Origin: Nonlabens sp. Hel1_33_55
Lineage (GTDB): Bacteria; Bacteroidota; Bacteroidia; Flavobacteriales; Flavobacteriaceae
Length of the DNA stretch: 64,000 nt
Assembly (NCBI RefSeq): GCF_900101765.1
Contig: NZ_LT627735.1
Span: 2,331,344 to 2,395,343 of the forward strand
Direction of reading: 5' to 3'
This document shows positions 781 through 60,884 of the stretch, in pieces; positions within the stretch are counted from its first letter, which is position 1, and every line of letters begins with the position of its first letter. The notes beneath the pieces are model-generated. The model was not told the DNA's origin. It saw only the letters and a program-made list of their open reading frames with translations, and did no database searches. Both the position numbers and the translations under genes were made by a program.

Positions 781-1968
781 AAGATTTTCATTGCTTTAGG
801 AAGTAATCTGGGCGACAGGTTTGAGAACCTTTGCACGGCGGTTGACTATATTGAGCAACAACTTGGGCTCATCATAAAGGTCGCGCCAGTCTATGAGGTT
901 CCTGCGATGGGTTTTGACGGTGATGATTTTTTGAATAGTTGTATTCTGGTTCACACGGCTAAAACTCCAACCGAATCCCTAGAGATCCTTCAAGGCATTG
1001 AACAATCCATGGGCCGGCAGCCAAAAACTGGAAAAGACTATGAAAATAGGGTGATCGACCTAGATATATTGCTGTTTGATGACTTGATCCTTAATGAGGA
1101 TCGATTGATAATACCGCATCCGCACATGGTCGATCGCGATTTTGTTATGAAGCCGTTAAGCGTTATTGCCGCTGATGTTGAGCATCCAGTTTTGAAGAAA
1201 TCCATTGCGTCGCTTGGCTTTTCAAAGGAGCTGGAACATGTGGTTGAGGAAAGTGGAATATCGCTTTCGCGAAAGGTAACTTCAGAAGAGGCCATTGTAG
1301 AATCCGAAGAGAGTTTAAATAGCAACCTACTTGCGCTGAACAGATTTCCTATTGATAAACTTAACTTCATAGCGATTGAAGGGAATATAGGTTCTGGTAA
1401 AACCAGTCTGGCACATAAAATAAGCGAGGATTTTAAAGGGAAATGTGTTTTGGAACGTTTTGCTGACAATCCGTTTTTGCCGCTGTTCTATGAAGATAAG
1501 GAGCGTTACAGCTTCCCGCTAGAGATGTCTTTTCTTGCAGATCGCTACCAGCAACTAAGCGATGATGTGGCGCAACACGATCTATTTGCCAACTTCACAG
1601 TAGCCGATTATTACGTGATAAAGTCCTTGATATTTAGCAAGATCACTTTACAAGCGGAAGAGTACGCGCTCTACAAGCGACTTTTCAATATGATGTATAA
1701 AGAACTTGTCAAACCAGATCTTTACGTTTACCTATATCAAACTGAAAAGCGACTGCTTGAAAACATCAAAACACGTGGACGCGACTATGAACAAAATATT
1801 GAGGCGAGTTATTTGGCTCAAATTCAGCAAGGCTATTCAGACTTTATAAGATCACAGAAAGATCTCAAAATTAAAGTCATCGACGTGACTGATCTGGACT
1901 TTGTGAATAATCAGGCAGATTATATTAAGGTGTTAGAGCAGATTAGTGCTGCTATCGCAACGGACTGA
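781..1968 (+). CDS. folK: Bifunctional 6-hydroxymethyl-7,8-dihydropterin pyrophosphokinase (HPPK) / deoxynucleoside kinase fusion
   Basis: The frame is open from 739. HPPK homology (KIFIALGSNLGDR...IIPHPHMVDRDFVMKPL) begins near 781, upstream of the first ATG at 907, and there is no ATG/GTG/TTG in-frame between 739 and 907, so the start is probably ATT/ATC/ATA. The C-terminal half (IAIEGNIGSGKTSLA P-loop ... DRY ...) is a dNK-family deoxynucleoside kinase, joined by a linker of about 45 aa in the same frame. Confidence 0.6.
   Translation, partial: KIFIALGSNLGDRFENLCTAVDYIEQQLGLIIKVAPVYEVPAMGFDGDDFLNSCILVHTAKTPTESLEILQGIEQSMGRQPKTGKDYENRVIDLDILLFDDLILNEDRLIIPHPHMVDRDFVMKPLSVIAADVEHPVLKKSIASLGFSKELEHVVEESGISLSRKVTSEEAIVESEESLNSNLLALNRFPIDKLNFIAIEGNIGSGKTSLAHKISEDFKGKCVLERFADNPFLPLFYEDKERYSFPLEMSFLADRYQQLSDDVAQHDLFANFTVADYYVIKSLIFSKITLQAEEYALYKRLFNMMYKELVKPDLYVYLYQTEKRLLENIKTRGRDYEQNIEASYLAQIQQGYSDFIRSQKDLKIKVIDVTDLDFVNNQADYIKVLEQISAAIATD
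1262..1277. repeat. 16-bp palindrome, 15/16 copy in the folK-dNK linker (LSRK)
   Basis: CGCTTTCGCGAAAGGT. Confidence 0.8.
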
Positions 1969-2497
1969 TCTTATTGAAGATATCATAGATTACAATCCCT
2001 GCACAAACGGCAATATTCAAGCTATGCTTGGTGCCGAATTGGTCCAACTCAATTACTTCTTTACAAACATCTACCACTTCCTGCTGTACGCCTTTGACCT
2101 CATTACCTAGAACAATAGCTACTTTTTCATTTTTTGAAGGTGAGAAATGAAAGAGATTTTGGGAGCGCTCTGCTTGCTCGATGGCGCATGTCGTGTAACC
2201 ATTCTGATTTAGTTTATGGACCACATCAATAGTTTCTTCCGCATATTCCCATGCGACAGATTCTGTAGCACCTAGCGCGGTTTTGCGTATCTCACGATGT
2301 GGTGGTTGCGCTGTTATACCGCATAAGTAGATTTTCTCAACACGATAGGCATCTGCACTGCGAAAAACGCTACCCACATTATTCAAACTACGGACATTGT
2401 CTAGAACGATGATGAGTGGTGTTTTTTCGCTTTCGCGAAAGCGGTCTGGTGACAATCTATCCAGCTCGTCGTTCAGAAGTTTTCTGGTTTCAGACAA
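1952..2497 (-). CDS. SpoU/TrmH-family RNA 2'-O-methyltransferase
   Basis: 181 aa with SpoU methylase motifs (LIIVLDNVRSLNNVGSVFRSADA ... IVLGNEVKGV ... LNIAVCAGIVIY). Confidence 0.7.
   Translation of the reverse strand: MSETRKLLNDELDRLSPDRFRESEKTPLIIVLDNVRSLNNVGSVFRSADAYRVEKIYLCGITAQPPHREIRKTALGATESVAWEYAEETIDVVHKLNQNGYTTCAIEQAERSQNLFHFSPSKNEKVAIVLGNEVKGVQQEVVDVCKEVIELDQFGTKHSLNIAVCAGIVIYDIFNKISPLR
2428..2443. repeat. 16-bp palindrome CGCTTTCGCGAAAGCG (perfect), in the SpoU CDS (encodes RFRES)
   Basis: Exact match read from the sequence. Confidence 0.95.
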
Positions 2498-2508
2498 AAT
2501 GATACGTC

Positions 2509-3744: not shown

Positions 3745-4653
3745 ATGAGTACACATACCATTAAAGTTGTTTCCACCTCAAATGAATCCATTGTTAAATT
3801 TGAAAGCAATCAGTTTCTTGTAAAGAACCACAGCTACGAGTTTAAAAATATCGATGAGGCAAAGCCATCGCCGCTGGCACAGCAGTTATTTTATCTGCCG
3901 TTTGTGAAAACCGTATATATAGCTCAGAATTTTATCGCGATTGAACGCTACGATATAGTTGAGTGGAGCGATGTTCAGGATGAAGTGGCGCAACAAATAG
4001 AGCAATATCTCAATGGTGACAAACCATTGCTACCTGAAGAAGGTGAAGTCAAAAAGGTTCCGGTAACTGTTTACGCAGAGGCAACGCCAAATCCTTCGGT
4101 TATGAAATATGTGGCCAACAAAAAATTAACGGTAACTACTCAAGAGTTCAAAACGATTGAGGATACTGAATCTGGTTCGCTTTCGCGAAAGCTGTACTCC
4201 TTTCCTTTTATTAAGGAATTATTTGTCGATGAGAACTACATTTCCGTCACAAAACATGATATCGTGGAATGGCCTGAAATTACCAATGAGATTAGATCAT
4301 TCATTAAAGAATCCATTGAAAACGGAAGTGAAGTAGGTGTTTCAAAATATAGTGCAGGAACATCTAAAGAAAAAGGTGAGGAAATGAGTTTGCCTAAATT
4401 TGAAAACTTAAGCGAGGTTTCCAAAAAGATCGTTGAGATTCTTGATGAATATATCAGACCAGCAGTAGCCAGCGATGGCGGTAATATTGCTTTTGAAAGC
4501 TACAATGAGGAATCACAGGAAGTGAATGTGATATTACAAGGTGCCTGTAGCGGTTGCCCTAGTTCTACAATGACTTTAAAAAACGGTATTGAGACCATGC
4601 TTAAAGAGATGATTCCCGGTAAGATAGAGCGAGTGATTGCTGTTAATGGGTAG
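3745..4653 (+). CDS. NifU/Nfu-family Fe-S cluster assembly protein
   Basis: 302 aa. C-terminal Nfu domain with a CSGC motif (ILQGACSGCPSSTMTLKNGIE), and an N-terminal Nfu_N-like domain. Confidence 0.6.
   Translation: MSTHTIKVVSTSNESIVKFESNQFLVKNHSYEFKNIDEAKPSPLAQQLFYLPFVKTVYIAQNFIAIERYDIVEWSDVQDEVAQQIEQYLNGDKPLLPEEGEVKKVPVTVYAEATPNPSVMKYVANKKLTVTTQEFKTIEDTESGSLSRKLYSFPFIKELFVDENYISVTKHDIVEWPEITNEIRSFIKESIENGSEVGVSKYSAGTSKEKGEEMSLPKFENLSEVSKKIVEILDEYIRPAVASDGGNIAFESYNEESQEVNVILQGACSGCPSSTMTLKNGIETMLKEMIPGKIERVIAVNG
4178..4193. repeat. 16-bp palindrome, 15/16 copy in the NifU-like CDS (LSRK)
   Basis: CGCTTTCGCGAAAGCT. Confidence 0.8.
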
Positions 4654-4714
4654 TTAAATGAACTTGCCTTGGCATGATTTATGTTTAATATTCCTATATA
4701 AAATTCGAGATATT

Positions 4715-5470: not shown

Positions 5471-5555
5471 GTATTGCTCATCGATATTATTTTATTGTAA
5501 TAAATATTAACCAGAGGCGGATCATTTGAGGTTCTTTCCATTAAAATAAACAATT

Positions 5556-6284: not shown

Positions 6285-6300
6285 TTATTTTCTATTAAAT

Positions 6301-6329
6301 AAAAAACCTGCCTAAGGCAGGTTTTTTTG
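6301..6329 (+). terminator. Rho-independent terminator
   Basis: AACCTGCC-TAAG-GGCAGGTT hairpin followed by TTTTTTTG. Confidence 0.6.
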
Positions 6330-6404
6330 TAACTTACTGTTAATCATTGCTTATCTAAGTTTAATTACTTTATCTTAAAGTATAATAATCAAAAATAAAA
6401 TATC

Positions 6405-9369: not shown

Positions 9370-10818
9370 TTATAATTTTAATTCGCTAGGATCAATACCA
9401 AAATATAGTTCCAGAACCTTCAGTCTAAAGATGTAATCGTATTTAGCTTGATTCAAACTAATTACGGAATTGTCGTAACGCAACTTACTCTGACTAAAAT
9501 CAAAAGCATTTATAAGTCCAACATCATAACGTTCCCTTGCGTATTCATAAGCAAGTTCCTGTGATTCTAAAGAGGTCTGTGCTGCTTCAAAGGCTCTTTT
9601 AGATCCTTGTACATCAACATATGCTTGATACACATTGCTTTCTAAATCTAATCTTGCCTGCTCTAATTGAAATTCAGCGCGATCAACATTGATCTTGTTA
9701 CGCTCAATATTAGATCTCGTGCTGAAACCGTTGAGGATAGGGATGTTCAATTGTAGACCATAAGAAATACCATCATTTTGATATAATTGATCAAAAAATG
9801 GATCAGCACCAGTGATCACTGCCGTTGTGTTAGGAATCTCACTGATTACAGCTTGGCCAGTTTCCTGAACAACACCTATTTGTTCAATTCTCACTGGATC
9901 GTCTGGATCGACAATCTGGGAAAATGATGTAGCATCAGTATATCTCGTGTCGTAGCTAAAGAATGCAGATATAGTAGGATAATTAGCTGCCTTTGCGATC
10001 TGCAAATCTTTCTTTGCTAATTCTACGTCCTGTTCTGCAATGCGCACTTCACTACGAGTAGCTTCTGCTGCACCAATGATATCATTGACCGGTTTTTCTG
10101 CAATTTCCTCATCAATGACCTCAAATTCACTATCGACGATGTCAAAATTCTCGTAGTCCTTAATGAGCAGTAATTGTGCAAGACTAATCTTACTAATAGT
10201 CACCGCATTTTGAGCAAGAATAATTTGCTGCTGTTCTGATGCGTTGGTTGCCTGTATTTCCAATAAATCACCACGTGGCAATTGACCGCCATCTACTAGT
10301 TGTTGAGTACGATCAATTTGTTCTTTGGTAACAAGGTTTTGGGCAGTAAGGCTTTTTAGGTTTGCCTTATTATTCAATATTTCCAGATAATTATTTGCAA
10401 CAAATAAAGAAATATCATCCTTCATCTTATCTAGTCTGTAGCGGCTGGCTAATTGCGACATTTTTGCACGCTGCAACTGCTTGACATTTCTCAACCCATC
10501 AAAAAGGGTATAACCTACATTGATACGTCCAGAAACTGATAGAAATGTAGTGGTCTGAGCATTATTGGTTACCGGGTTGAAACTCAATCCAGTATTTTCT
10601 GAAATGCTGGAGTTGGCATTCAAGCTAGGAATAAAATTTCCTACTGCGCTTAATTTTTCAACCTCAGCAGCGTCAATATCCAACTCACTTAACTTTACGG
10701 AGATATTGTTTTCAAGTGCATATTGGATGCATTCCTGTAGCGTCCATACTTGAGGTGTTTGCGCTTTCGCGAAAGCGAAACAACCAAAAACTGCTATGCA
10801 TAAAAATAAATTCTTCAT
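9370..10818 (-). CDS. TolC-family outer membrane efflux protein
   Basis: 482 aa with a signal peptide and two OEP repeat halves with coiled-coil. Confidence 0.75.
   Translation of the reverse strand: MKNLFLCIAVFGCFAFAKAQTPQVWTLQECIQYALENNISVKLSELDIDAAEVEKLSAVGNFIPSLNANSSISENTGLSFNPVTNNAQTTTFLSVSGRINVGYTLFDGLRNVKQLQRAKMSQLASRYRLDKMKDDISLFVANNYLEILNNKANLKSLTAQNLVTKEQIDRTQQLVDGGQLPRGDLLEIQATNASEQQQIILAQNAVTISKISLAQLLLIKDYENFDIVDSEFEVIDEEIAEKPVNDIIGAAEATRSEVRIAEQDVELAKKDLQIAKAANYPTISAFFSYDTRYTDATSFSQIVDPDDPVRIEQIGVVQETGQAVISEIPNTTAVITGADPFFDQLYQNDGISYGLQLNIPILNGFSTRSNIERNKINVDRAEFQLEQARLDLESNVYQAYVDVQGSKRAFEAAQTSLESQELAYEYARERYDVGLINAFDFSQSKLRYDNSVISLNQAKYDYIFRLKVLELYFGIDPSELKL
10762..10777. repeat. 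16-bp palindrome (perfect), in the TolC signal peptide (AFAKA)
   Basis: Exact match. Confidence 0.95.
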
Positions 10819-15355: not shown

Positions 15356-15574
15356 TTAATTCAATTTTTTACGTGTGGTACTGCGATAAATCATGTAGAT
15401 AATACCTCCAACTAGCAAATATGGAAAGATCATTAAATAAGTAATCCCATTGTTCAGACCTTCAGCTTCGGCATTGCTACCGTCACTTTCTATAACGGCG
15501 CGGCACATGGCACATTGCGCTTTCGCGAAAGCGGAATAAAGAAGAACTACAGTAAATATGACAATCTTTTTCAC
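15356..15574 (-). CDS. Small hypothetical membrane/secreted protein (72 aa, GTG start)
   Basis: ORF trimmed to the GTG at 15574 to avoid overlap with the DUF420 gene. It has a signal-like N-terminus and a C-terminal TM helix. The signal peptide is encoded across the 16-bp palindrome (SAFAKAQ). Confidence 0.3.
   Translation of the reverse strand: MKKIVIFTVVLLYSAFAKAQCAMCRAVIESDGSNAEAEGLNNGITYLMIFPYLLVGGIIYMIYRSTTRKKLN
15518..15533. repeat. 16-bp palindrome (perfect), in the small-protein signal peptide (AFAKA)
   Basis: Exact match. Confidence 0.95.
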
Positions 15575-20589: not shown

Positions 20590-20605
20590 CGCTTTCGCGA
20601 AAGTG
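20590..20605. repeat. 16-bp palindrome, 15/16 copy in the leuS-cyoE intergenic region
   Basis: CGCTTTCGCGAAAGTG. Confidence 0.8.
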
Positions 20606-20914: not shown

Positions 20915-23900
20915 CTATCCCACCACAAAATTCACAATCTTTCCAGGCACGATAATCGTCTTGCGTACTACCTTTCCTTCCAACTGCTCTTGAACTTTCT
21001 CGTTTTCCAAAACCATTTGTTCCAGTTCATCTTTTGAAACATCTACTGGTAGGTCCAGTGTAAATTTCATTTTACCGTTAAACGAAATAGGGTACGTCTT
21101 GCTGCTTTCTACCAGATATTTCTCTTCAAATACTGGAAACTCAGCCTCGCTGATGGATTCATTGTGACCTAGTAATGACCACAATTCTTCTGCGATGTGT
21201 GGCGCATATGGCGACACCAATATCGCAAGTGGTTCCAATACTCCACGGTTATTGCATTTTTGAGCGGTCAATTCATTCACTGCGATCATAAAGCTACTCA
21301 CGCTGGTATTAAATGAGAAGTTCTCAATATCCTCGCGAGTTTTCTTGATGGTTTTATGCAAGGTTTTCATGCTGTCTGGCGAGGCTTTCTCATCGCTCAC
21401 ATTAAAACCGTTTTCATCGTGATACAGTTTCCACAGCTTTTTGATAAAACCATAAACTCCCGTAATTCCTGCGGTATTCCAAGGCTTGGCCTGCTCTAGC
21501 GGACCTAGAAACATTTCATACAAACGCAACGTATCTGCTCCATATTGATCGCAGATATCGTCTGGATTAACGACGTTGTATTTGGACTTAGACATTTTTT
21601 CAACCTCTCGGGAGACCTTCCAGTCAGTAGTGTTAGGTGAATTAAAAAGCTTTCCGTTTTGGAATTCCAGAAAAACACTATTCACATATTCTTGGTGATT
21701 GTTGTGTGATCTGAAATCATCGGTATTCATTTTATCATTATGGACAATTGAAACGTCAACCCTAATTTTACTTAAACTAAAGCTTGGTTCTTCTGGAATA
21801 TCAGACACCGCATTTTTTACGATATAGTCCTGTAATAGATAATCAACGTCTGTGTAAAGCAATGAGTCTGGACCTTCTTTGCTTTCACAAGATTTTGAAA
21901 AGACATCTAAGCTGACAAATGTCGGGTTCTGCATTGAAATCCCATGAATTTCATTTCGTAATTGGTAATAAGGATTCAGTCGATAAGCAAAAGCACTTTC
22001 ACCTAAAATCATCCCTTGATTGATCATCTTTTGGAATGGCTCATTGACCGTGACTTTTCCAAGATCATGCAACAACTTCACCCAGAATCTGCTGTACAAC
22101 AAGTGACCTGTTGCGTGCTCGCTTCCTCCTATATATAGATCGACGTTTTGCCAGTATTCTTGAGCCTCGCTCGAGAACATTTCGTTCTCATTGTTGGCAT
22201 CCATGTATCTAAACATGTACCATGAACTTCCTGCCCAGCCTGGCATGGTGTTTAATTCTAAGGGATATACACAATCACGGTCGTCATCGTTGGAAACGAC
22301 TTTGTTTTCTTTGGTACACCAACTCCAATGCGTGGCACGTCCCAAAGGTGGTGCGCCATCTTCGGTAGGTAGATATTCATCTACCTCTGGTAATTCCAGT
22401 GGCAAATATTTGCGGTCAATCATTTGTGGCAAACCATCTTTGAAATACACTGGAAATGGCTCACCCCAATAACGTTGTCTGGAGAATACCGCATCGCGCA
22501 ATCTGTAGTTGGTCTTTCCTTTACCAGCACCAACTTCTTCCAGCTTTTCAATAGCTGCTGCCATCGCGCCAGATTTATAACTCATTCCGTTAAGGGACTC
22601 GCTGTTGGTGATTTTTGTATCGTCTTTTGCGGCATAGGCTTCCTCACTCACGTCCACATCCTTGAAGATGTTTTTGATTTCGGGCATTCCTTTCTGACCT
22701 GCAAAGAAGTTGGCAAAAGCATGATCACGCTCATCACCACATGGTACTGCCATTACAGCTCCAGTTCCATAACCTGCCAATACATAATCGCCTATCCATA
22801 CCGGTATCTTTTCACCGCTCAATGGATGTAGCGCATAGGCTCCCGTGAATACACCTGATATGGTTTTCACATCTGCCATGCGCTCTCGCTCTGATCTCGC
22901 CGCGGTAGCTTTTTTGTACGCCTCAACCGCTTGTTTTTGATCTTCTGTGGTTATGATATCGACCAACTCATGTTCTGGTGCCAGCGTCATGAAGGTCACT
23001 CCATAGATAGTATCAGGTCGTGTGGTGAAGACGTCTATTTTCAAATCTTTTTCGGAAACATCTGCCCCATTGCCTGCGGCATTTCCCCTAAGGGGAAAAT
23101 TGTCATCGCTTCGATCCAGCTTAAAGGTTACCATCGATCCTATCGATTTTCCAATCCAGTTGCGCTGGATTTCTTTGATGGATTCGCTCCAGTCGAGACC
23201 TTCCAAATCATTCAATAAACGCTCTGCAAATGCGCTAATACGCATCATCCACTGGCGCATTTTTTTGCGCACTACTGGATGACCACCACGTTCTGAAACG
23301 CCGTTGACTATTTCATCATTGGCCAGTACGGTTCCTAATGCTGGACACCAGTTGACTTCGGTATCTGCAAGGAAAGTCAAACGATATTCGAGTAGAATTT
23401 CTTGTTGTTCTTGTTCTGTAAAAGCGTTCCATTCTGCTGCTGTGAACTGTCGCAAATCTTCATCTGTTGCAGCGTTGATGGAAGTTGTTCCGCTTTCGCG
23501 AAAGCAAAACTCCAACTCACTTATAGGGCGTGCTTTGTTTGCAATGTTATCGTACCAGCTGTCAAACAACATGATGAAGATCTCCTGCGTGTATTTGTAA
23601 TAATCTGGAGAGGAGGTTTTTACCTCACGCGACCAGTCAAAACTAAACCCGATGCGGTCCATCTGCTCGCGGTACCTCGCAATGTTGTCCTTTGTAGTAA
23701 TCGCAGGATGCTGACCAGTTTGTATCGCGTACTGTTCTGCCGGCAATCCAAAGCTATCATAACCCATGGGGTGTAACACGTTAAAGCCAGTGTGGCGCTT
23801 ATAACGAGAGACAATGTCGCTGGCGATGTAGCCCAATGGATGACCCACATGCAGACCAGCGCCACTAGGATATGGGAACATATCTAGCGCGTAGAATTTT

Positions 23901-25071: not shown

Positions 25072-25087
25072 CGCTTTCGCGAAAGCG
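25072..25087. repeat. 16-bp palindrome (perfect), intergenic between ftsX and DUF3098
   Basis: Exact match; about 20 bp upstream of the ATG at 25105. Confidence 0.95.
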
Positions 25088-28804: not shown

Positions 28805-28820
28805 CGCTTTCGCGAAAGCG
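28805..28820. repeat. 16-bp palindrome (perfect, extended TTCGCTTTCGCGAAAGCGAAA), in the divergent XRE / ybjN-pspA promoter region
   Basis: Exact match; centred between the divergent starts at 28644 and 28942. Confidence 0.95.
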
Positions 28821-30139: not shown

Positions 30140-30853
30140 TTGGAAAACTATTTCAACATTCTATTTTCTGAAGTCAACATCACGCTTACCGTGCTGCTGC
30201 TCATCCTTATTGTTTATTGGATTTTTACCATGATCAGCGGTATTGATTTTGACCTGGATGTAGATGTGGACATCGATGTTGATGTGGATGCAGACCTAGA
30301 CATGGATTTTGACAGCATTGAAGGTGGCAACCTTGATTTTGAAGATGTTGCCAATGCAGAAGTGGATCGCGAGCACGTGGTCAACAAACGAACTCGACAG
30401 CTCAAATGGTGGCAAATCATATTGATTTACTTCAATTTTGTGGGTTTGCCGTTCATGTTCACCTTCACGTTTTGGATTTTCTTATGGTGGCTCATGAGCG
30501 TTTTAACAACAGCAGTAACAGGAAGCTATGATAATGTTTTTGGCTTCATTATCGTGCTGGCAGCTCTCATTCCAGCGCTATTTGTGACAAAAATCGTAAC
30601 CACACCATTTAAAGCGTTTTTCAAAAACTTGAATAAAGATGGCGACAAGGCAGTAGACTTTCTAGGCCGCAGCGCTATCTTGATGTCCTCCATTTCAGGA
30701 GATAAGTTGGGCAATGCAGAAGTGCTTGCCGATGGAAATCCCATGAGTATTTACGTCAAGTCGTTGGATGGATCAGAATTACGCTTTCGTGAAAGCGTGC
30801 TCATCATCAAGCAATCGGACGATAAAAATTATTTTTTAGTGAGTAAGGCGTAA
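30140..30853 (+). CDS. NfeD-like (YqiJ/DUF1449) membrane protein with C-terminal OB-fold
   Basis: N-terminal TM segment, an acidic DVDVDID repeat, further TM segments, and a C-terminal beta-barrel (GRSAILMSSISGDKLGNAEVLADGNPMSIYVKS). It sits immediately upstream of the flotillin gene, as in yqiJ-yqiK. Confidence 0.6.
   Translation: MENYFNILFSEVNITLTVLLLILIVYWIFTMISGIDFDLDVDVDIDVDVDADLDMDFDSIEGGNLDFEDVANAEVDREHVVNKRTRQLKWWQIILIYFNFVGLPFMFTFTFWIFLWWLMSVLTTAVTGSYDNVFGFIIVLAALIPALFVTKIVTTPFKAFFKNLNKDGDKAVDFLGRSAILMSSISGDKLGNAEVLADGNPMSIYVKSLDGSELRFRESVLIIKQSDDKNYFLVSKA
30782..30797. repeat. 16-bp palindrome, 15/16 copy in the NfeD CDS (RFRES)
   Basis: CGCTTTCGTGAAAGCG. Confidence 0.8.
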
Positions 30854-36800: not shown

Positions 36801-38875
36801 TTTTAAGCGTTTTATTACACAAACATCATGATCTAGGCTTGCTCACATATGATCCAAACACGAGAGCAAAAGCGCAGTTTTTTTGGAACAGTTTAGAGCA
36901 GTCGCAACGTTCCAACCTCAACCGTATTTTAAAAAGTGCTGGCGAGGTGTTATCTGTTTTTCCAGATAGTAAAGAGTATGATTTTATTGTGGAGGAATTG
37001 GCTGATGAGATTTTTAAAGCCAATAGTGCAAACAAGACCGACTTCGACAAGCTCAGTCTGACAAAGGAAAAAACACCAAGCGATGTCACGTTGAGCCTGT
37101 CGAAACGGAGTTTAGATTCTATAAAGCATAATTCCAACTCGACTGCTGGAAACGAACACCAAATCGCTGAATATCTATTCAATGAACTAAAAGACAACGA
37201 TCATTTTACTGTAAGTACGAGTGCTATTCAGTTAAAGGAAGCTTTTGAGAAAAAAATAAAATCTCAAAATGCCGATTTGAAATTCAAGAAAAGTCTAGAA
37301 GCCTGTGAGGACGAGAAGTCTAAAGTAGAACTGGTGAGACATTGGGTTTCTGCTTTCGCGAAAGCGGAATCAAAACAAGCTTTATTGCCCTATACAAACG
37401 AATGTGTTGCTAACATCCTCTACGGAAAACTGACTGCCGATAAAACGGTAGCAATATCGCCTGTGGAAACAATTACAGGATTAAAAGGATCGCATGGAAC
37501 GATCAACGAAAGTGAATTTGTATTCAATTACCACGAGTTTGTGAACGTTTTGGAGCATTTTACTACTGTAAAAGTGCCAGCTTATGAAACCTTTAGAAAA
37601 GCAAAACATCAAGTAACTGAAGAGTTAAAAGAATCGTTGCGATTGGAAGAATTCAAGCCACGAGTGCTAAGCTCATTTGTGCGTAACAAATTGATCGACC
37701 AAGTATATTTCCCATTGATAGGCGATAATCTGGCCAAACAATTAGGAACCGTAGGCGATACGAAACGTACCGACCGAATGGGATTGTTGCTCTTGATATC
37801 ACCACCAGGTTATGGTAAAACCACCTTGATGGAATACATGGCTAACCGGTTGGGCTTGATTTTTATGAAAATCAACGGTCCAGCTATAGGTCACGATATT
37901 ACCTCTGTAGATCCAGAAGCTGCTTCTAATGCGGCAACTCGTGAAGAACTCAAAAAGCTGAATCTTGCTTTTGAAATGGGTGATAACGTGATGTTATATC
38001 TGGATGATATCCAGCACTGTAATCCCGAGTTTTTACAAAAGTTCATCAGTCTGTCTGATGGAACACGTAAGATTGAAGGAGTTTATAATGGCAAGCCTAA
38101 AACCTATGATCTACGTAGTAAGAAATTCTGCGTGATCATGGCTGGTAATCCTTATACAGAAAGCGGAGATAAATTCCAGATTCCAGACATGCTTGCCAAC
38201 CGTGCAGATATTTATAATCTTGGAGATATCATAGGCGATACGGCTCATTTGTTTGAACTAAGTCTGGTTGAAAATGCATTAACGAGCAATCCAGTATTAC
38301 AACAGTTAAGTAACAAGCACTTTGATGATGTATATGCCTTAATCGATCGAGTTCAAAATGGCGCCAGCGATAACGAACTCAAAGGAAACCACAGCAACCA
38401 AGAAATAGCCGACTATGTCGCTGTCCTAGAAAAGGTATTGAAGATACGGGATACGGTTCTTAAAGTAAATGAAGCGTACATCGCCAGCGCAGGAATGGAA
38501 GATGCTTATCGTACGGAGCCTTCTTTCAAACTACAAGGTTCTTATCGTGATATGAATAAACTGGTCGCTAAAGTTGTTCCTATCATGGATGATAAAGAGT
38601 TACAAACTCTCCTATCATCACACTATGAAAGTGAATCACAAACCTTAACCAGCGCTGCAGAAGCAAACTTGTTGAAATACAAAGAACTGGTAAGCACCAT
38701 AAAACCAAAAGAGCAAGAACGATGGACAGCCATCAAAGAAATTTTTGCAAAAAATAACAAGCTGAACGGTCTAGGTGGGCAAAATCAAATGTCTCAAGTA
38801 TTGAATCAGATGATGGATTTTACTGAAAATCTAGAGGGAATAAAAGAGGTGTTGAAGAAAGGGTTAGCTAAGTAA
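33863..38875 (+). CDS. Giant multidomain protein (1670 aa) with C-terminal AAA+ ATPase module (MoxR/AAA_5-like)
   Basis: Continuous ORF. Walker A LLLLISPPGYGKTTL, Walker B VMLYLDDIQHCNPE, sensor-1 FCVIMAGNPYT and arginine ANRADIYNL at about aa 1300-1450. The N-terminal 1250 aa comprise a coiled coil, a beta-rich region and long helical arrays. It contains an in-frame copy of the repeat family at 37041-37107. Confidence 0.6.
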   Translation: MADKELKDTTQLDSGTYEIIQSRLLKQKNDLQQRLHALNEERKKVFGSLETRLIANDRVNTENNCIARDIVTIGKNSIFGYNVHFGLRTEINLSDVFSIYEFDREGKDGDALRFRDLPAGRQEAGSSLELIEDPIFQTDFENLYKYYRNTIFSKFAIIGNYLHMVFQLSDSVTDIKTFKWLIKENELQYVDNRSEHEYRFPAQYGFQWKEAGRDNQRAGKHGHVSILDKVFVETIGGDLTIKVEDNTDDGQGIYREDVEHRDQTLDDGQYRYADLGNLIVLEIKPFQEEPRHFVYNHKIKEVEKIDSIAQAAVLLPDEQGIIFPSGYYLQTGEYNVFPSDAGKLKFQQKIASPNGEDHLYVFYNAAQGLYVLMSYNVIDQSVKTPIVCNGFTILEQGELCYFRNGDEQTKHHMMQIWQTPYLKGDIVPSEHQDTMLYKIGNKDIVKAMAEANELLTLLNKEDSYGGLYDDIARASKDILDAYYWLPEEETKQINLPLGEINKASNAAIDEFEKVKQMRKQAAAETKDISKKAETLFSKIKSTSFKSINDFVELLTQLRSLRGEAIGLYEIRYVDTDFIKGIEDQIVEQNEVISRRAVTFLLDDKALAPYHEAVAEKQKALDATKKVIEIKNLEKEVNQIAEDLELLIEIVSNLDIEDTSHSTKIIENISLIFATINQVKAAIKNKVKIVGKKEAQADFAAQLKLIDQSIINYLDIANTPEKCDEFLTKISIQLEELEGKFADYDEYITEIIAKREEVYAAFDNRKSSLIEARNKKAISYQNAAERIIKGVQKRAQSLDSATEINGYFASDLMINKVRDIIAQLKDLEDAGKAEAIETALKVAREDALRKLKDKNELYEDGDNIIKLGKHKFGVNKQQLDLTIVFKDNALFYHLTGTDFYQELHNEILTQSKGIWNQELVSENSEVYRAAYLAYSIFKTGDKEALRMMSPTDLLLRVQEIASGNYSGGYVKGVHDHDTAQILSVLLHKHHDLGLLTYDPNTRAKAQFFWNSLEQSQRSNLNRILKSAGEVLSVFPDSKEYDFIVEELADEIFKANSANKTDFDKLSLTKEKTPSDVTLSLSKRSLDSIKHNSNSTAGNEHQIAEYLFNELKDNDHFTVSTSAIQLKEAFEKKIKSQNADLKFKKSLEACEDEKSKVELVRHWVSAFAKAESKQALLPYTNECVANILYGKLTADKTVAISPVETITGLKGSHGTINESEFVFNYHEFVNVLEHFTTVKVPAYETFRKAKHQVTEELKESLRLEEFKPRVLSSFVRNKLIDQVYFPLIGDNLAKQLGTVGDTKRTDRMGLLLLISPPGYGKTTLMEYMANRLGLIFMKINGPAIGHDITSVDPEAASNAATREELKKLNLAFEMGDNVMLYLDDIQHCNPEFLQKFISLSDGTRKIEGVYNGKPKTYDLRSKKFCVIMAGNPYTESGDKFQIPDMLANRADIYNLGDIIGDTAHLFELSLVENALTSNPVLQQLSNKHFDDVYALIDRVQNGASDNELKGNHSNQEIADYVAVLEKVLKIRDTVLKVNEAYIASAGMEDAYRTEPSFKLQGSYRDMNKLVAKVVPIMDDKELQTLLSSHYESESQTLTSAAEANLLKYKELVSTIKPKEQERWTAIKEIFAKNNKLNGLGGQNQMSQVLNQMMDFTENLEGIKEVLKKGLAK
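37041..37107. repeat. MITE-like element (arm pair in opposite arrangement) embedded in-frame in the giant ORF
   Basis: CTTCGACAAGCTCAGTCTGACA ... GATGTCACGTTGAGCCTGTCGAAACGG; translated as ...DFDKLSLTKEKTPSDVTLSLSKRS... Confidence 0.65.
37351..37366. repeat. 16-bp palindrome, 15/16 copy in the giant ORF (AFAKA)
   Basis: TGCTTTCGCGAAAGCG. Confidence 0.8.
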
Positions 38876-39903: not shown

Positions 39904-40640
39904 AAAAGTGGGCGTATTTCATGATGACTAGCTTTACGGCCTCAGGTTTTGCGCAAGAACTCATAGAGCCTGCGACAACCATGAATACTGGTGAATTTCA
40001 AGCACAGATTGCTGTGATCTATACAGAAAATAGTGAGTTCCGCTTTCGCGAAAGCGTACTAACCTACAACAATACCCTACTACTTTATGGCATTTTTCCT
40101 CATATGGAATTGCGTCTGGGAATTGATGTCAACTCCTCAGAAACCACGGATGGCGGCGCTAGGATAGGTGATAGAACTAGCGGTACAACGCCTTTACAGA
40201 TAGGTGCTAAATATCGCTTTTTCCAGCAGACTGAATCCACTCCGGAGATATCAGTCATGAGTCACGTATTTCTGCCACTTACGGCTAGTTCTGACAACAA
40301 ACCAAACTATACTGGATATGATCTCTGGGTTCTAGGATTACATCAAATCAACGATCAACATGCCGTCCGTGTTAATATAGGAGCGGCTACTGGTGGAGAT
40401 TCAAGAGGTATTTTGCCATTATATATTCTGGCCCACAACTGGCTACCCTTTGGGAAATGGGGTTTGAATACTGAAGTATATGGCGAATTTCCATCAAATG
40501 AATCATCCAAACATTTCTTTGACGTTGGTATTAGCTACTTTTTTAGACCTACGGTTCAGCTAGACCTCAACGCTGGTCGTGGCATCAACAATAACCAATC
40601 GATTCTCGCCAGCATGAGACTCACTTATACTATTATTTGA
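39900..40640 (+). CDS. Outer membrane beta-barrel protein (putative metal-uptake porin), first gene of the metal ABC operon
   Basis: Signal peptide, alternating beta-strand pattern and C-terminal aromatic residues. The ATGA overlap with the dtxR stop suggests translational coupling. Confidence 0.4.
   Translation: MKKWAYFMMTSFTASGFAQELIEPATTMNTGEFQAQIAVIYTENSEFRFRESVLTYNNTLLLYGIFPHMELRLGIDVNSSETTDGGARIGDRTSGTTPLQIGAKYRFFQQTESTPEISVMSHVFLPLTASSDNKPNYTGYDLWVLGLHQINDQHAVRVNIGAATGGDSRGILPLYILAHNWLPFGKWGLNTEVYGEFPSNESSKHFFDVGISYFFRPTVQLDLNAGRGINNNQSILASMRLTYTII
40041..40056. repeat. 16-bp palindrome (perfect), in the OM barrel CDS (RFRES)
   Basis: Exact match. Confidence 0.95.
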
Positions 40641-42291: not shown

Positions 42292-42307
42292 CGCTTTCGC
42301 GAAAGCG
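42292..42307. repeat. 16-bp palindrome (perfect), intergenic inside the metal ABC operon
   Basis: Exact match. Confidence 0.95.
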
Positions 42308-44671: not shown

Positions 44672-44687
44672 CGCTTTCGCGAAAGCG
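44672..44687. repeat. 16-bp palindrome (perfect), between convergent genes
   Basis: Exact match. Confidence 0.95.
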
Positions 44688-47197: not shown

Positions 47198-47213
47198 CGC
47201 TTTCGCGAAAGCG
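47198..47213. repeat. 16-bp palindrome (perfect), in the divergent HK / AKR promoter region
   Basis: Exact match; about 30 bp upstream of the AKR ATG. Confidence 0.95.
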
Positions 47214-49994: not shown

Positions 49995-50010
49995 CGCTTT
50001 CGCGAAAGCG
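49995..50010. repeat. 16-bp palindrome (perfect), upstream of the desaturase gene
   Basis: Exact match; about 45 bp upstream of the start at 49952 (minus strand). Confidence 0.95.
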
Positions 50011-53087: not shown

Positions 53088-53103
53088 CGCTTTCGCGAAA
53101 GCG
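53088..53103. repeat. 16-bp palindrome (perfect), in the divergent greA / lipoprotein promoter region
   Basis: Exact match. Confidence 0.95.
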
Positions 53104-53850: not shown

Positions 53851-56025
53851 TTAGAAAGTTAATGTTACTCCAGTCAAAAAGTTAATTCCAGCCTGTGGGA
53901 ACAAGAAACTACCAAATCCTGGGAAAACATAACCGTTGGAAATGTATTCTTCATCCAGAATATTATTGACCAGCAAACTCAGGGTAACTTCCTTGACCAG
54001 ATTGTTCGGCTTCCAGATGTATTGTGCGTTGAAATCGTTGACAAAATAACTATCCAATCTTGCCGTATCACTATCCGTATTATCCAATTGCTGCTCGCCC
54101 ACATATTTAGACAATAGCGATACTTCAAAATTATCACGAATGCTATAGGTGATCGCATTACCAGCAACAACTGATGGTGAGTAAGCAATTTCAGTATCGC
54201 CTAGATTGTTGGGCGTACCATTATCGTCTATTATAAAGTCTTGGTTTCGGTTTTGGGAAATTGCAAAATTGGGTTGCAGGAATAACTTGTCGGTTATTCT
54301 GAATCTTGCATCGATCTCAAGTCCCAACCGATAGCTATTACCACTATTGGCTCTCAATGGCACACCTTGATTATCAATTTCACCAGTCAACACCAGTTGA
54401 TCCTTGTAATCCATATAATAAAGGTTGACATTGACGTTCATGGAAGGTTTGGCAAAGCGGTAGCCCAATTCATAATCGATCAAATCCTCTGCTTCTGGAG
54501 AGCCGTTCTGGAAATCTGCACGGCTGGGTTCTCTTTGTGCGCGAGCGACACTACCGTACAGCTGGTTACTTGGGTTGAACCTGTAAACAGCACCTGCTTT
54601 TGGGTTGAAAAAATCGTAACGCTCATCAGTTAAAAATTGGTCTACTGCAAAATCACTTCCCGTAGTGTTGTAATCCACACGACGTTGCTGCAAGTCAATG
54701 AATGCTGTTAGTTCAGAGGATATTTTGAAGTTCGCTTTCGCGAAAGCGTTAAAATCATTCTTCACGCTATTACCGGTATAAAATCGCTGCAACGGTTCGT
54801 TGAGCTGTATAAAACTGCCCGCGATAATCTCACCATAATGCTCACCGTCATACTGATTGATTCCAGCACCAAAACTTGCGTCTATCCAGTCATTCTTGTA
54901 GTTAAGGTTAGTCACAACACCATAAAACTCATTGTCCAACCAGCGGCGTGTCTCCAGATCACTACTGGTCACCGTCATTCCATTCGCCTGAAAAGCATCC
55001 AACCCATAGACGTCAAATTGGGTTCTTCCAGCAGCATCAAAGAAAAAATCACTCTCTTGATATTCCTGGAAGTAGCCACGTCCTTTTGTGTAATGCAAAG
55101 TGGCACTGGCACTCCAGTTGTTATTGAATCTATGGCTCAATAGCAACTGGTAGTGATCTTGATTGTAGTTATCTACCTGCGCGTCATAGAATTGAGTGTT
55201 ACCATTTTCATCTATGTACAATCCTGCGCTATTGAAGGTGCGATCAGTTTCGAGCGTAACTGGATCAATACCATAATATGCTTGATACGTGCGTTCCTGA
55301 CCTCCAAAGATGATGGCTTTGACCAATGTTTTATCACCTACATAAGAACCGGAAACATAATAGGATTTCAGGTCGCTATCTGCGCGATCGATGTAACCAT
55401 CGCTATAGATCTGTGAAGCGCGGCCGTTAAATTCCCAGCGGTCATCCAGCAACCCTGTGGTGAACTGGATGTTATGCTTGCGTGAGTTAAAAGAGCCAAT
55501 GGAATTGGCCACTTTAACCTCAGCTTCATCGCTGTAGTCCGTGGTTTTTATGTTGAGACTTGCGCCAAAAGCACCGCTACCATTAGTACTGGTACCAACG
55601 CCGCGTTGCAGCTGCACACTTTCTACACTGCTGGAAAAGTCAGGTAAATTGACCCAGAAGGTTCCCTGGGATTCTGCATCATTGTAGGGAACACCGTTGA
55701 GTGTCACGTTGACTCTTGTGGCATCACTACCTCGCACGCGTATTCCCGTATAACCTATTCCAGCACCGGCATCACTTGTAGTAACCACGTTAGGCAAATA
55801 ATTGAGTAAAATAGGTAGGTCCTGACCTAGATTTCTCGACTTGAGATCCTCTGCCGTGACGTTAGAAAAGGTTACTGGATTTTCTGTAGTTACTCGTGTG
55901 GCTTTGAGAACAATTTGGTTGAGCTTTTCAGCTTTAGTGGTGTCTTGTTCCTGCGCGTTTTGTGCTGTTACCGTGCTGGATAGTGTTAATGCAACGGCAA
56001 TTACAGCGACTGATAAATGTTTCAT
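53851..56025 (-). CDS. TonB-dependent receptor (probable thiamine/thiamine-precursor outer membrane transporter)
   Basis: Signal peptide, a plug domain and a 22-strand barrel with C-terminal ...GVTLTF. Preceded by a TPP riboswitch. Confidence 0.85.
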   Translation of the reverse strand: MKHLSVAVIAVALTLSSTVTAQNAQEQDTTKAEKLNQIVLKATRVTTENPVTFSNVTAEDLKSRNLGQDLPILLNYLPNVVTTSDAGAGIGYTGIRVRGSDATRVNVTLNGVPYNDAESQGTFWVNLPDFSSSVESVQLQRGVGTSTNGSGAFGASLNIKTTDYSDEAEVKVANSIGSFNSRKHNIQFTTGLLDDRWEFNGRASQIYSDGYIDRADSDLKSYYVSGSYVGDKTLVKAIIFGGQERTYQAYYGIDPVTLETDRTFNSAGLYIDENGNTQFYDAQVDNYNQDHYQLLLSHRFNNNWSASATLHYTKGRGYFQEYQESDFFFDAAGRTQFDVYGLDAFQANGMTVTSSDLETRRWLDNEFYGVVTNLNYKNDWIDASFGAGINQYDGEHYGEIIAGSFIQLNEPLQRFYTGNSVKNDFNAFAKANFKISSELTAFIDLQQRRVDYNTTGSDFAVDQFLTDERYDFFNPKAGAVYRFNPSNQLYGSVARAQREPSRADFQNGSPEAEDLIDYELGYRFAKPSMNVNVNLYYMDYKDQLVLTGEIDNQGVPLRANSGNSYRLGLEIDARFRITDKLFLQPNFAISQNRNQDFIIDDNGTPNNLGDTEIAYSPSVVAGNAITYSIRDNFEVSLLSKYVGEQQLDNTDSDTARLDSYFVNDFNAQYIWKPNNLVKEVTLSLLVNNILDEEYISNGYVFPGFGSFLFPQAGINFLTGVTLTF
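54733..54748. repeat. 16-bp palindrome (perfect), in the TonB receptor CDS (AFAKA)
   Basis: Exact match. Confidence 0.95.
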
Positions 56026-56299: not shown

Positions 56300-56315
56300 C
56301 GCTTTCGCGAAAGCG
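56300..56315. repeat. 16-bp palindrome (perfect), in the divergent TPP-riboswitch / PLDc_N promoter region
   Basis: Exact match. Confidence 0.95.
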
Positions 56316-58698: not shown

Positions 58699-60786
58699 TT
58701 ACGCTATCGTTGCACCATTCACAATCGTATCATCTGGATTGACAAAAACTAGTTTTCCGTCGGGATCCTCGGCAAGTAGGATCATTCCTTGAGATTCTAC
58801 GCCCATCAACTTTCTAGGTGCAAGGTTTGCTAGGACGGTTACTTTTCTGCCTACCAATTCTTCAGCCGTGTAGTGTTTTGCGATTCCTGAAACGATAGTA
58901 CGCTTATCAATACCTGTATCGACTGTCATTACCATCAATTTGTTGGACTTGGGCAATTTTTCTGCAGTGAGGATTTCTGCGACGCGTAGGTCCATTTTCA
59001 TGAAATCGTCGTAGTTGGTTTCTTCTTTCTGTGGCATAAGATTAGGTGTTGTGGATTTGTTGGCAGCTTTGGTAGCTTCTAGTTTGGCGAGCTGCGCTTC
59101 TATTTGTTCGTCTTCGATTTTAGAGAAGAGCAATTCGGCTGGATTGATTTTGTAGCCGTGGTGCAACAGCTCTTGTTTTTCAGCAATATCATTCCATTCG
59201 ATCTTGACCAGATCTGCACGCAATCTGGCAGCAGGATTTGAAGCGATGTTAAGCATGTTTTGTAATTTCTTAGCCGTATGAGGCAAGAACGGTTCTGCAA
59301 GAACGGCAAGAGCTGCAGCAATTTGCAAGCCGACGAACATGATCGTTTTTACACGTTCTGGATCGGTTTTGATGATTTTCCAAGGCTCTTCATCGGCTAG
59401 GTATTTGTTTCCTAATCGTGCAAGGTTCATGAACTCGTTGGCGCTTTCGCGAAAGCGATATCTCTCCAAACTACTTTCTATACTGGCTGGAAAAGCATTG
59501 ACCGCATCCAGTGTTTCTTGATCAATGGCGGTAAATGCGCCAGGTTCTGGCACTACTCCATCGTAATATTTATGGGTCAATACCAGCGCCCGATTGATGA
59601 AATTACCAAGGATGGCCACCAACTCATTGTTGTTGCGCGCCTGGAAATCTTTCCAAGTGAAATTGTTGTCCTTAGTTTCCGGTGAGTTTGCCGTTAATAC
59701 ATAGCGCAACACATCTTGTTGTCCCGGGAAATCCTCGAGGTATTCATGCAACCAAACCGCCCAATTGCGCGAGGTCGAAATTTTATCGTCTTCTAGATTC
59801 AAGAATTCGTTTGCTGGAACATTGTCCGGCAAAATGAACTCGCCATGCGCCTTCAACATCGCAGGGAAAATGATGCAATGAAAAACGATGTTGTCCTTGC
59901 CTATAAAATGAAGCAGTTTAGTGTCGTCCTTCTTCCAGTAATCCTCCCAATTCTTGCCTTCTCGATCTGCCCATTCCTTAGTGGACGATATATAACCGAT
60001 GGGTGCGTCGAACCAAACGTAAAGCACTTTACCATCGGCTCCTTCAACGGGAACAGGAATTCCCCAATCCAGATCGCGCGTTACTGCGCGAGGTTTGAGA
60101 CCGTCAGTCACCCAACCTTTTACTTGGCCCAACACGTTAGTTTTCCAGTCGGCAGCATGGCCTTCTACTATCCATTCATTCAACCAGTCGCTGTATTGAT
60201 CCAGCGGCAGGAACCAGTGTTTGGTCTCGCGCAATTCTGGAACATTGCCGGTGATGGCGCTTTTTGGCTCTATTAAATCAGTAGCGTTGTGGGACGTACC
60301 GCAGCGCTCGCATTGATCGCCGTATGATTCTGGGTTGCCGCATTTAGGACAAGTTCCTACCACAAAACGGTCGGCTAGAAATTGGTTGGCTTCTGCATCA
60401 TACAGCTGCTCTGTAACTTGTTCTATAAACTTGCCGTCGTCATATAATTTGATGAAAAAGGCACTTGCAGTTTCGTGGTGAATAGGCGCACTGGTACGGC
60501 TGTAATTGTCAAACGAAATTCCAAATTCTTCAAAAGAATCACCAATAATTTTATGGTAGCGATCCACAATTTCTTGTGGCGATACACCTTCTTTTTTGGC
60601 CTTTAAAGTAATGGGCACACCATGCTCATCACTACCGCAAATAAAGGCTACATCGTTGCCTTTCAACCGCTGGTAACGCGCATAGATATCTGCTGGGACG
60701 TAAACTCCAGCCAGGTGACCTATGTGCACAGGTCCATTTGTATACGGCAATGCCGCTGTAATCGTATATCGTTGTTGATCGCTCAT
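58699..60786 (-). CDS. metG: Methionine--tRNA ligase
   Basis: HIGH ([14 protein letters not shown]), a zinc knuckle (CPKCGNP..C..CG), KMSKS-equivalent region, and a C-terminal EMAP/tRNA-binding domain. The ORF is open to 60897; the likely start is the Met at 60786 ([15 protein letters not shown]). Confidence 0.9.
59442..59457. repeat. 16-bp palindrome (perfect), in the metG CDS (RFRES)
   Basis: Exact match. Confidence 0.95.
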
Positions 60787-60868
60787 GAAATCTCTAAAAG
60801 GCCACAAATTTACAATATCTGTGGCAGCTTTAATGTTCTGTTGGGAGCAGTAATGAATGTAATGAATT

Positions 60869-60884
60869 AGCTTTCGCGAAAGCG
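60869..60884. repeat. 16-bp palindrome, 15/16 copy in the divergent metG / lipoprotein promoter region
   Basis: AGCTTTCGCGAAAGCG. Confidence 0.8.

Follow-up and report, generated by a model that had tools for sequence, protein, structure and literature searches.

Why should a stretch of a flavobacterial chromosome carry the same 16-bp word about once every 3 kb? The question arises from 64,000 nucleotides (nt) of Nonlabens sp. Hel1_33_55 (Flavobacteriaceae; RefSeq assembly GCF_900101765.1, contig NZ_LT627735.1, positions 2,331,344 to 2,395,343), here called the window, to which all coordinates refer unless another locus is named. The word, CGCTTTCGCGAAAGCG, is an exact 16-bp perfect palindrome and occurs at this density in Nonlabens and Dokdonia and in their resident, temperate-type phages. 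To our knowledge, hyper-abundant motifs that arise in place are confined to very few lineages, with uptake signal sequences (USS) and DNA uptake sequences (DUS) in two proteobacterial families and the highly iterated palindrome HIP1 in cyanobacteria, and their function has been debated for decades. We consider it very probable that CGCTTTCGCGAAAGCG is a recognition motif that was created in place and is maintained at the level of the DNA.

Abundance and exactness of the palindrome

When up to two mismatches were allowed, the window was found to contain 21 copies: 14 exact, six with one mismatch (starting at 4178, 20590, 23491, 30782, 37351 and 60869) and one with two (starting at 1262). A preliminary description of the window, made from the sequence alone, had counted the same 14 exact copies, at the positions where we find them, and seven one-mismatch copies, which our recount reduces to six plus the two-mismatch copy. 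The site at 34199, which it had called a half-copy, is actually a full one-mismatch copy split by a 20-nt insert.

In 100 dinucleotide shuffles of the window no copy appeared, and Markov models of order 1 to 4 predicted about 1e-5 to 4e-5 copies per 64 kb. The earlier estimate of roughly 1e-5 by chance is thus borne out. Compared with about 1e-5, the 14 exact copies amount to an excess of more than 10^5-fold, and a simple compositional effect can be excluded as their source.

The mismatch spectrum is sharp. Sites with 0, 1, 2, 3 and 4 mismatches number 14, 6, 1, 0 and 0 in the window, compared with 0, 0, 0.03, 0.23 and 1.7 expected. The 8-nt half-site occurs 36 times (1.2 expected), always within full sites; a search of the window yielded neither free half-sites nor a tail of degenerate copies, and TCGCGA is not strongly enriched there outside full copies. 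The sharp spectrum and the lack of any lone half-site indicate that the unit is the whole palindrome, which is held near-exact.

CpG transitions account for four of the six one-mismatch copies in the window. This would fit biased mismatch repair or methylation-linked correction, in which a repair activity tied to a core-recognising methyltransferase (TCGCGA or CGCG) converts near-matches; Elhai's model for HIP1 and very short patch (VSP) repair at Dcm sites are said to be precedents. Such a process would also account for an origin in place, for the sharp spectrum, for mismatches at the outermost positions, as reported for HIP1, and for copies in resident prophage-type DNA. However, a specificity of 14-16 bp far exceeds known methyltransferase or Vsr-type recognition, sites with three or four mismatches are not enriched (0 versus 1.9 expected), and TCGCGA by itself lacks the strong enrichment that such a bias should leave. 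We regard this explanation as unlikely, and the spacing and the phages described below add to the case against it.

Origin by substitution in place

Evidence that the motif was created in place comes from metG, whose product, methionyl-tRNA synthetase (MetRS), can be aligned with the Pyrococcus and human enzymes without a gap at the motif (YRFRES versus YRFKDA and RIRDA). The peptide RFRE[A/S] is ancestral in MetRS of the Flavobacteriaceae. At the DNA level, the site has equal length in all species compared. It is exact in N. agnitus, N. ponticola and the window, and has one mismatch in N. dokdonensis, two (synonymous) in N. antarcticus, six in Aequorivita and seven in N. ulvanivorans. MetRS of the window is 96% identical to that of N. 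agnitus and of Nonlabens sp. YIK11.

Two further enzymes behave in the same way. A copy in KatG (DAFAKAWFKLTHRDMGP) aligns gap-free with Burkholderia KatG (DAFARAWFKLTHRDMGP), and a copy in GlpK (VDHAFAKAQQGD) aligns gap-free with E. coli GlpK (VEGSRERARRGE). In GlpK the residues at the motif are non-conservative, so that the force acting on the DNA can also impose amino-acid changes. The clearest case is a phage terminase. Two related phages both encode FHIAFAK[A/M]VLKDPTGK, with IAFAK identical and five synonymous codons different (ATC GCT TTC GCG AAA GCG with the motif, ATT GCA TTT GCA AAG ATG in the relative without it), and the more distant terminase of Peternella has no indel at the motif either. 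The leuS copy at 23491 says nothing on insertion versus substitution, because it lies inside a lineage-specific insert of about 60 amino acids (aa).

The preliminary description had proposed substitution in place rather than insertion, with ortholog alignments as the check. These alignments agree with it: MetRS, KatG, GlpK and the phage terminase, four conserved proteins, are free of gaps, and neither they nor the metG DNA change in length at the motif. Judged by such comparisons, copies in genes and spacers were evidently made in place by point substitutions and have since been kept exact as DNA, whatever peptide they encode.

Distribution over genes and spacers

Eleven copies in the window, the interrupted one included, lie inside genes, about 10 are intergenic, and one (2428) is uncertain. 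Five more Nonlabens loci with called genes contain 15 coding and 15 intergenic copies. Given this even split, spacers are much richer in copies than one would expect from the small fraction of the DNA that they make up. The preliminary description had stressed in-frame placement. Gene copies are indeed found in all three frames, and the translations it gave (AFAKA, RFRES, LSRK(R)) are correct, but about half of the copies are intergenic. The copy at 60869, and probably that at 47198, lies 5' of the true start codon and not in the gene, and the coding status of the copy at 2428 is uncertain.

Among 96 clearly coding copies, the frame AFAKA is used 56 times, RFRES 24 times and LSRKR 16 times, in unrelated proteins and contexts. 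A peptide motif was rejected, since all three frames are used in unrelated contexts and synonymous codons are fixed. Intergenic copies occur in divergent, convergent and co-directional spacers alike, and no fixed distance to a start codon was found for them (range 17 to more than 270 nt).

Along the DNA the copies keep apart. The smallest gap between copies in the window is 1166 nt (P ~1e-4 for random placement), and the coefficient of variation of the gaps is 0.53 (P ~1e-3). Across 64 independent loci, each holding two or more copies, a single gap is shorter than 500 nt (11.7 expected) and four are shorter than 1 kb (22.3 expected). Copies repel each other below about 1 kb and are spaced more evenly than by chance; a repair bias does not predict this sub-1-kb repulsion. 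The stretch 4001-8000, which has the lowest GC content of the window (0.336), overlaps the motif-free interval 4178-10762 (6.6 kb, one of the two longest) and may be accessory DNA with fewer copies.

Flanking consensus and folding

For a sequence logo, 216 copies with at most one mismatch were taken from the window and from 120 genome stretches containing the motif. The 16 core positions are nearly invariant, and mismatches cluster at the outermost two. Beyond the core, the copies share a weak consensus (T at -2, -3, -6, -9 and -12, A at -4, G at -5, mirrored on the opposite side), and the 22-mer form of the motif is TTnCGCTTTCGCGAAAGCGnAA. The 5' flank is C-poor and GT-rich, with TTGTT and TGTTG enriched, the 3' flank is G-poor and AC-rich, and these skews extend about 20-30 nt from the core. 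The pattern is alike in coding and intergenic copies, in Dokdonia and Nonlabens, and in low-GC viral copies.

A palindrome that is enriched between genes, and that at 44672 fills a spacer between convergent genes, invites comparison with small mobile or structural repeats: repetitive extragenic palindromes (REP) with their REP-associated tyrosine transposases (RAYT), miniature inverted-repeat transposable elements (MITEs), palindromic elements of the Rickettsia type, or an RNA hairpin or terminator. A stem of 6 bp with a 4-nt loop is possible (-4.3 kcal/mol). However, arms from the same copy pair no better than arms combined across copies (6.1 versus 6.1 and 7.1 versus 6.9 of 20), and the folding energy of real copies equals that of the chimeras, so that an extended, copy-specific hairpin was rejected. 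Symmetric mismatches were seen in three of 25 degenerate copies, all at the outermost pair; double mismatches are otherwise not compensatory.

An RNA hairpin or terminator was also rejected. The stem is short, the T-run stands 5' and the A-run 3' of it, which is the reverse of an intrinsic terminator, and copies are found in signal peptides, in mid-gene and 5' positions and in divergent promoter regions alike. A search of the window against Rfam gave no match at the palindrome; the only match, Flavo-1, lies elsewhere. A mobile element was rejected on similar grounds: four conserved proteins show no insertion length change at the motif, the arms are no better paired than those of chimeras, and the copies form no clusters or arrays like bacterial interspersed mosaic elements (BIME) but repel each other. 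An explanation from this class is in our view hardly credible.

Conservation and taxonomic spread

Exact upkeep at the DNA level can be followed between species. In a Nonlabens metagenome-assembled genome (MAG) with about 73% nucleotide identity to the window, the coding copies 30782, 37351, 34199 and 1262 are found at orthologous positions, and three intergenic copies of the window are not shared. Closer Nonlabens loci were fetched via metG and are hence unselected for the motif. Five other Nonlabens loci carry 5-7 copies (about 6) per 22 kb each, and the Aequorivita outgroup locus carries none. At site 53088, N. agnitus has no mismatch, N. antarcticus one and N. ponticola two, in flanks that can barely be aligned. 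Site 54733, in a TonB-dependent receptor gene, is kept in three further Nonlabens species (0, 1 and 0 mismatches) amid diverged codons, and sites 49995, 56300 and 60869 are common to subsets of Nonlabens species. The core is kept at orthologous sites where flank identity falls to 50-60%.

N. ulvanivorans stands apart. Only one of its seven copies in 22 kb (L287) is exact, four have one mismatch and two have two, compared with about two thirds exact in other Nonlabens, and four of the degenerate copies are at sites conserved elsewhere. Maintenance of the motif may be relaxed in this species, to judge from these counts. In N. antarcticus (L165, about 14000-14040), the ortholog of site 56300 has another palindrome, TTACCGGTAA, in a similar T-rich/A-rich setting, perhaps by chance.

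Genomes were scanned for CGCTTTCGCGAAAGCG with one genome per species. Among the matches listed, almost all belong to Dokdonia, Nonlabens and uncultured Flavobacteriaceae, and the single scattered matches in other taxa are in line with chance. The literature searched contains no paper with the 16-mer or its 14- or 12-mer, the matches to the inner 10-mer TTTCGCGAAA are unrelated, and nothing ties Dokdonia or Nonlabens to iterated palindromes or uptake sequences. Likewise, no report of a motif of this type in the phylum was found there; the preliminary description had supposed as much for Flavobacteriia.

Conserved intergenic copies and regular spacing would also suit an array of sites bound by an abundant homodimeric protein that organises the nucleoid or chromosome, with each site under ordinary cis selection for domain structure, compaction or segregation. 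The perfect palindrome, whose half-sites never stand alone, agrees with such an array, the extended weak flank logo resembles the outer contacts of a DNA-bending protein, and HIP1 has been interpreted in this way (PMC5861425). However, selection on individual sites would have to recode synonymous positions of a phage terminase and force non-conservative residues on GlpK, and proteins of this kind seldom require 16 of 16 exact matches. We consider the array rather unlikely, also in view of the phages.

Phages

IMG/VR contains 11 viral contigs with at least two copies of the motif. One of them, 37 kb long, has six copies with host-type flanks, together with genes for portal, terminase, protease, capsid, sheath and baseplate proteins. 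Among cultured phages it is closest to the Mu-like transposable Winogradskyella phage Peternella_1, whose host is outside the motif clade and which has no copy of the motif. The isolated Nonlabens siphophages P12024S (35.7 kb) and P12024L (30 kb) have no copy even at three or fewer mismatches; the density in the host predicts about 11 copies in 35.7 kb, for which zero has P = 1e-5. The motif accumulates in the temperate-type Mu-like contigs and is absent from the two siphophages, which have no annotated integrase and carry their own recombination (ERF/YqaJ) and replication genes. The siphophages (L290, L291) also lack TCGCGA altogether and contain only 8-9 CGCG per 30-36 kb, compared with about 35 expected from composition, which suggests avoidance of CpG or of restriction sites.

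The lytic Nonlabens phages share the cytoplasm in which a repair bias would operate, and still carry no copy. For an array of nucleoid sites, there is no obvious reason why temperate phages should gain sites and lytic phages of the same host none. A Chi-like “self” signal for AddAB/RecBCD resection or for defence would agree with the siphophages: recombination genes of their own, such as the ERF/YqaJ of the motif-free P12024S and P12024L, are common in phages that circumvent the Chi of the host. Being a palindrome, the signal would work in both directions, and RecA loading would be helped by 5' flanks rich in GT; on each strand the 5' flank, where RecA would be loaded, is in fact GT-rich. The motif density of about 1 per 3-4.5 kb also resembles that of Chi in E. 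coli. However, known Chi sites are asymmetric 5-8-nt signals in single-stranded DNA, and here the 8-nt half-site, which is easier to evolve, is never found alone. Moreover, selection for Chi yields modest over-representation, not one of more than 10^5-fold. We think a Chi-like role very unlikely.

A possible role in DNA uptake

Origin in place, exact upkeep, repulsion and occurrence in resident but not virulent phages match the set of features of USS, and a recognition sequence for uptake or recombination is therefore favoured. On our analysis, the phage contrast and the spacing would favour an uptake signal among the proposed roles. That uptake or transformation is the process maintaining the motif seems a real possibility, although we stop short of calling it probable. 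We are somewhat more tentative about the fuller proposal, that the 16-mer might be a true uptake or self-recognition sequence of marine Bacteroidota, the first in the phylum, palindromic and read by a dimeric receptor.

In this scheme, CGCTTTCGCGAAAGCG would be a lineage-specific “highly iterated palindrome” that is read by a sequence-specific, probably homodimeric, DNA-handling activity. A pathway of DNA uptake or of transformation and recombination would prefer the motif, like USS/DUS and as proposed for HIP1, so that better-matching alleles would pass between cells more often. Under this molecular drive, copies would build up at even spacing, in the chromosome and in its long-term residents alike, at the points where a protein or spacer can accommodate one. 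As for the weak flanks (TT..core..AA; 5' GT-rich, 3' AC-rich), they might be the low-specificity outer part of the recognition site. There are related cases: Riemerella columbina, also of the Flavobacteriales, is naturally competent, with a bias towards DNA of its own kind (PMC7965970), a function as an uptake sequence has now been proposed for HIP1 (bioRxiv 10.64898/2026.06.24.733823), and in phages of Pasteurellaceae, USS accumulate in temperate but not in lytic ones (PMC6776037).

Several points weigh against a role in uptake and against the evidence for it. Classical USS and DUS are asymmetric 9-12-mers, unlike a 16-bp perfect palindrome, and the strand-symmetric GT/AC skew of the flanks has no counterpart in USS/DUS. 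The literature searched gave no sign of natural competence in Nonlabens or Dokdonia; genes for competence or receptors were not searched for. Xu et al. found HIP1 to be under selection and spaced non-randomly, and read this as a role in chromosome structure, not uptake (PMC5861425). When all scan loci were compared against each other, the core was unchanged in eight of 15 site pairs with flanks less than 70% identical, a figure that is inflated, since a locus entered the scan set only if it contained the motif. Finally, the lytic-versus-temperate contrast consists of one phage pair and one contig family, and since P12024S and P12024L have their own recombination genes and are CpG-poor, their lack of copies can have other explanations.

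Individual copies in the window

The 11 copies inside genes are read in different frames and protein regions. The two-mismatch copy CGCTTTCGCGAAAGGT (1262..1277) encodes LSRK in open reading frame (ORF) 907-1968(+), where it forms part of the linker between an HPPK (folK) domain and a deoxynucleoside kinase (dNK) domain that are fused in a single frame; its ortholog, L054:4559, is exact. LSRK is also the frame of the one-mismatch copy 4178..4193, in the linker between the Nfu_N and NifU domains of the NifU-like ORF 3745-4653(+). Exact copies are found in the signal peptide (..FAFAKAQ..) of the TolC-like OEP ORF 9370-10818(-), at 10762..10777, and in the signal-peptide-like N-terminus (..LLYSAFAKAQC..) of the small, secreted-looking ORF 15356-15655(-), at 15518..15533; a Pfam search with the latter ORF returned no family. 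The one-mismatch copy 23491..23506 lies in leuS (20915-24037, -), within the lineage-specific insert mentioned above. This insertion (aa 160-221, about 60 residues) separates catalytic-core segments of LeuRS in comparison with E. coli, Thermus and Mycoplasma.

In ORF 30140-30853(+), a one-mismatch copy with a CpG transition (30782..30797) is read as RFRES, and its ortholog (L020:1705) is exact, in flanks that are 79% identical. The giant ORF 33863-38875(+) contains two copies. The first is the interrupted one-mismatch copy (34199..34234), composed of CGCTTTCGCGA at 34199-34209, the GC-rich 20-nt hairpin CCTGCCTGCCGGCAGGCAGG at 34210-34229 and AAGCT at 34230-34234; a Nonlabens MAG has an unbroken, exact copy at the orthologous position (L106:7074). 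The second, 37351..37366, has one mismatch and is read as AFAKA, and its ortholog (L106:4018) is exact. The remaining coding copies are all exact: 40041..40056 in the outer-membrane barrel ORF (Phenol_MetA_deg) 39900-40640(+), frame RFRES; 54733..54748 in the TonB-dependent receptor gene 53851-56025(-), frame AFAKA; and 59442..59457 in the anticodon-binding domain of metG, frame RFRES. The uncertain exact copy, 2428..2443, falls within the first 27 codons of the SpoU-type methylase ORF 1952-2497(-), and the SpoU Pfam domain begins at aa 28, downstream of it.

Among the approximately 10 intergenic copies, the one at 20590..20605 (one mismatch) separates a UbiA gene (19603-20568, -) from leuS. 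The exact copy 25072..25087 is located downstream of an ftsX-like gene and 17 nt upstream of the start (25105) of a DUF3098 gene, and the exact copy 28805..28820 between the divergent genes 27886-28644(-) and 28942-29343(+); the orthologous spacer and site in L020 lack the motif in both cases. An exact copy at 42292..42307 begins 4 nt past the stop of an ABC ATPase gene (41551-42288), before a permease gene at 42396, and another, 44672..44687, occupies most of the 27-nt spacer of the convergent genes 43505-44662(+) and 44690-45457(-). The exact copy 49995..50010, between a desaturase gene (48951-49952, -) and an acyltransferase gene (50034-50981, -), has an exact ortholog in N. ponticola (L164:21458) and one with a single mismatch in N. 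ulvanivorans. Exact copies also lie between the divergent greA (52532-53008, -) and 53245-53673(+), at 53088..53103, and between the TonB receptor gene and a pirin gene, at 56300..56315; the latter is exact in N. ponticola and split by the 20-nt hairpin element in N. agnitus.

Two copies appear in-frame at N-termini because the longest ORFs are over-extended at the 5' end, by about 37 codons for metG (58699-60897, -) and by about 20 for an aldo-keto reductase gene (47185-48339, +). MetRS homology begins only at aa 41-43 of the long ORF, which places the one-mismatch copy 60869..60884 in the divergent intergenic region, 5' of where metG truly starts; N. agnitus and N. antarcticus have retained the identical one-mismatch variant. 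The exact copy 47198..47213, between a histidine kinase gene (45669-47123, -) and the aldo-keto reductase gene, is probably 5' of the true reductase start, since the long ORF enters its Pfam domain only at aa 37.

A 20-nt hairpin nested in some copies

The insert at 34199 belongs to a 20-nt GC-rich element, CCTG-N-CTGCCG-N'-CAGGCAGG, with a 5-bp stem (CTGNC/GN'CAG) and the loop TGCC. In Nonlabens it lies inside copies of the 16-mer in all three cases (window 34210-34229; N. agnitus L163, 1541-1560 and 14945-14964), two of which are insertions at sites where relatives have an intact 16-mer. A further locus of the element is L084:273. In metagenomes (L166-L285) it is present in at least 120 stretches, from unrelated metagenomes with a GC content of 29-71%, and its variable N:N' pair is compensatory (125 copies: C:G 85, T:A 19, A:T 4). 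Some of these copies adjoin tRNA-like sequences. Palindromic contexts are modestly enriched, with 12% versus 4% in controls. In view of its wide spread and this modest association, the element is in general no specific partner of the 16-mer. Perhaps it is a very small mobile hairpin, or else the footprint of a transposon; we know of no description of such an element.

The Flavo-1 RNA (Rfam RF01705, 56 bits), which is unrelated to the palindrome, is located at 33079-33162(-), in the spacer 5' of the 1670-aa giant ORF.

Implications

If a role in uptake is true, Nonlabens and Dokdonia would be naturally transformable with a strong preference for their own DNA, and the drive would also take in their temperate phages. 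The motif would be a third independent case of a hyper-abundant motif made in place, and an unusually long, exact and palindromic one. Its hosts are cultivable marine flavobacteria that serve as models for proteorhodopsin and algal-bloom ecology. They would offer a new test system for the question whether such motifs mark self DNA for uptake and recombination, and adding the motif to donor DNA gives the development of genetic tools a starting point in a group in which transformation is difficult. As a sequence tag, the motif could link metagenomic contigs and temperate phages to Nonlabens and Dokdonia hosts. It also shows that, in the housekeeping genes of these bacteria, forces at the DNA level recode synonymous positions and sometimes the amino acids themselves.

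Comparison with known systems

Unlike Chi, CGCTTTCGCGAAAGCG has no single short asymmetric unit, its 8-nt half-site being present only within the full palindrome. With the parS sites of ParB and the binding sites (NBS) of Noc it shares its length of 16 bp, its perfect symmetry and the TTTC..GAAA pattern, for which the presumed reader is a dimeric helix-turn-helix protein. The sequence differs, and parS/NBS number from a few to about 70 per genome, with parS clustering near the origin, whereas the present motif occurs about once per 3 kb, phage DNA included. REP/BIME with RAYT, MITEs and the palindromic elements of Rickettsia are likewise short, abundant palindromes enriched between genes (those of Rickettsia also occur within genes), but unlike our motif they insert with length polymorphism, pair their arms copy by copy and often cluster.

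The analogy with HIP1 and USS/DUS drawn in the preliminary description holds for every feature tested. HIP1 (GCGATCGC), whose function has long been debated, is also a hyper-abundant GC-rich palindrome in AT-richer genomes. As with HIP1, copies are coding and non-coding, created in place, conserved between genomes beyond neutral expectation and non-randomly distributed, and one-base deviations fall at outer positions. CGCTTTCGCGAAAGCG is neither GCGATCGC nor the octameric alternative, and its hosts are Flavobacteriaceae, not cyanobacteria. It differs from HIP1 in sequence, phylum and length (16 versus 8 bp), has a flanking consensus, and is less dense per kb with a far higher fold-enrichment.

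With USS/DUS, CGCTTTCGCGAAAGCG shares clade specificity, exactness, a density of roughly 1 per 1-4 kb, an origin by point substitutions and retention at orthologous positions among the species that share it. The use of all frames with a frame bias, the preference for tolerant regions, the intergenic enrichment, the over-even spacing and the weak extended flank consensus are also common to both. As with USS, copies are found in temperate and not in lytic phages (PMC6776037), here in a small phage sample. CGCTTTCGCGAAAGCG is unlike USS/DUS in being a 16-bp perfect palindrome with a GT/AC flank skew, and in its host phylum, Bacteroidota, in which no uptake sequence is known. What is new is thus a USS- and HIP-like motif in another phylum, perfectly palindromic, twice the length of HIP1 and accompanied by a flanking consensus.

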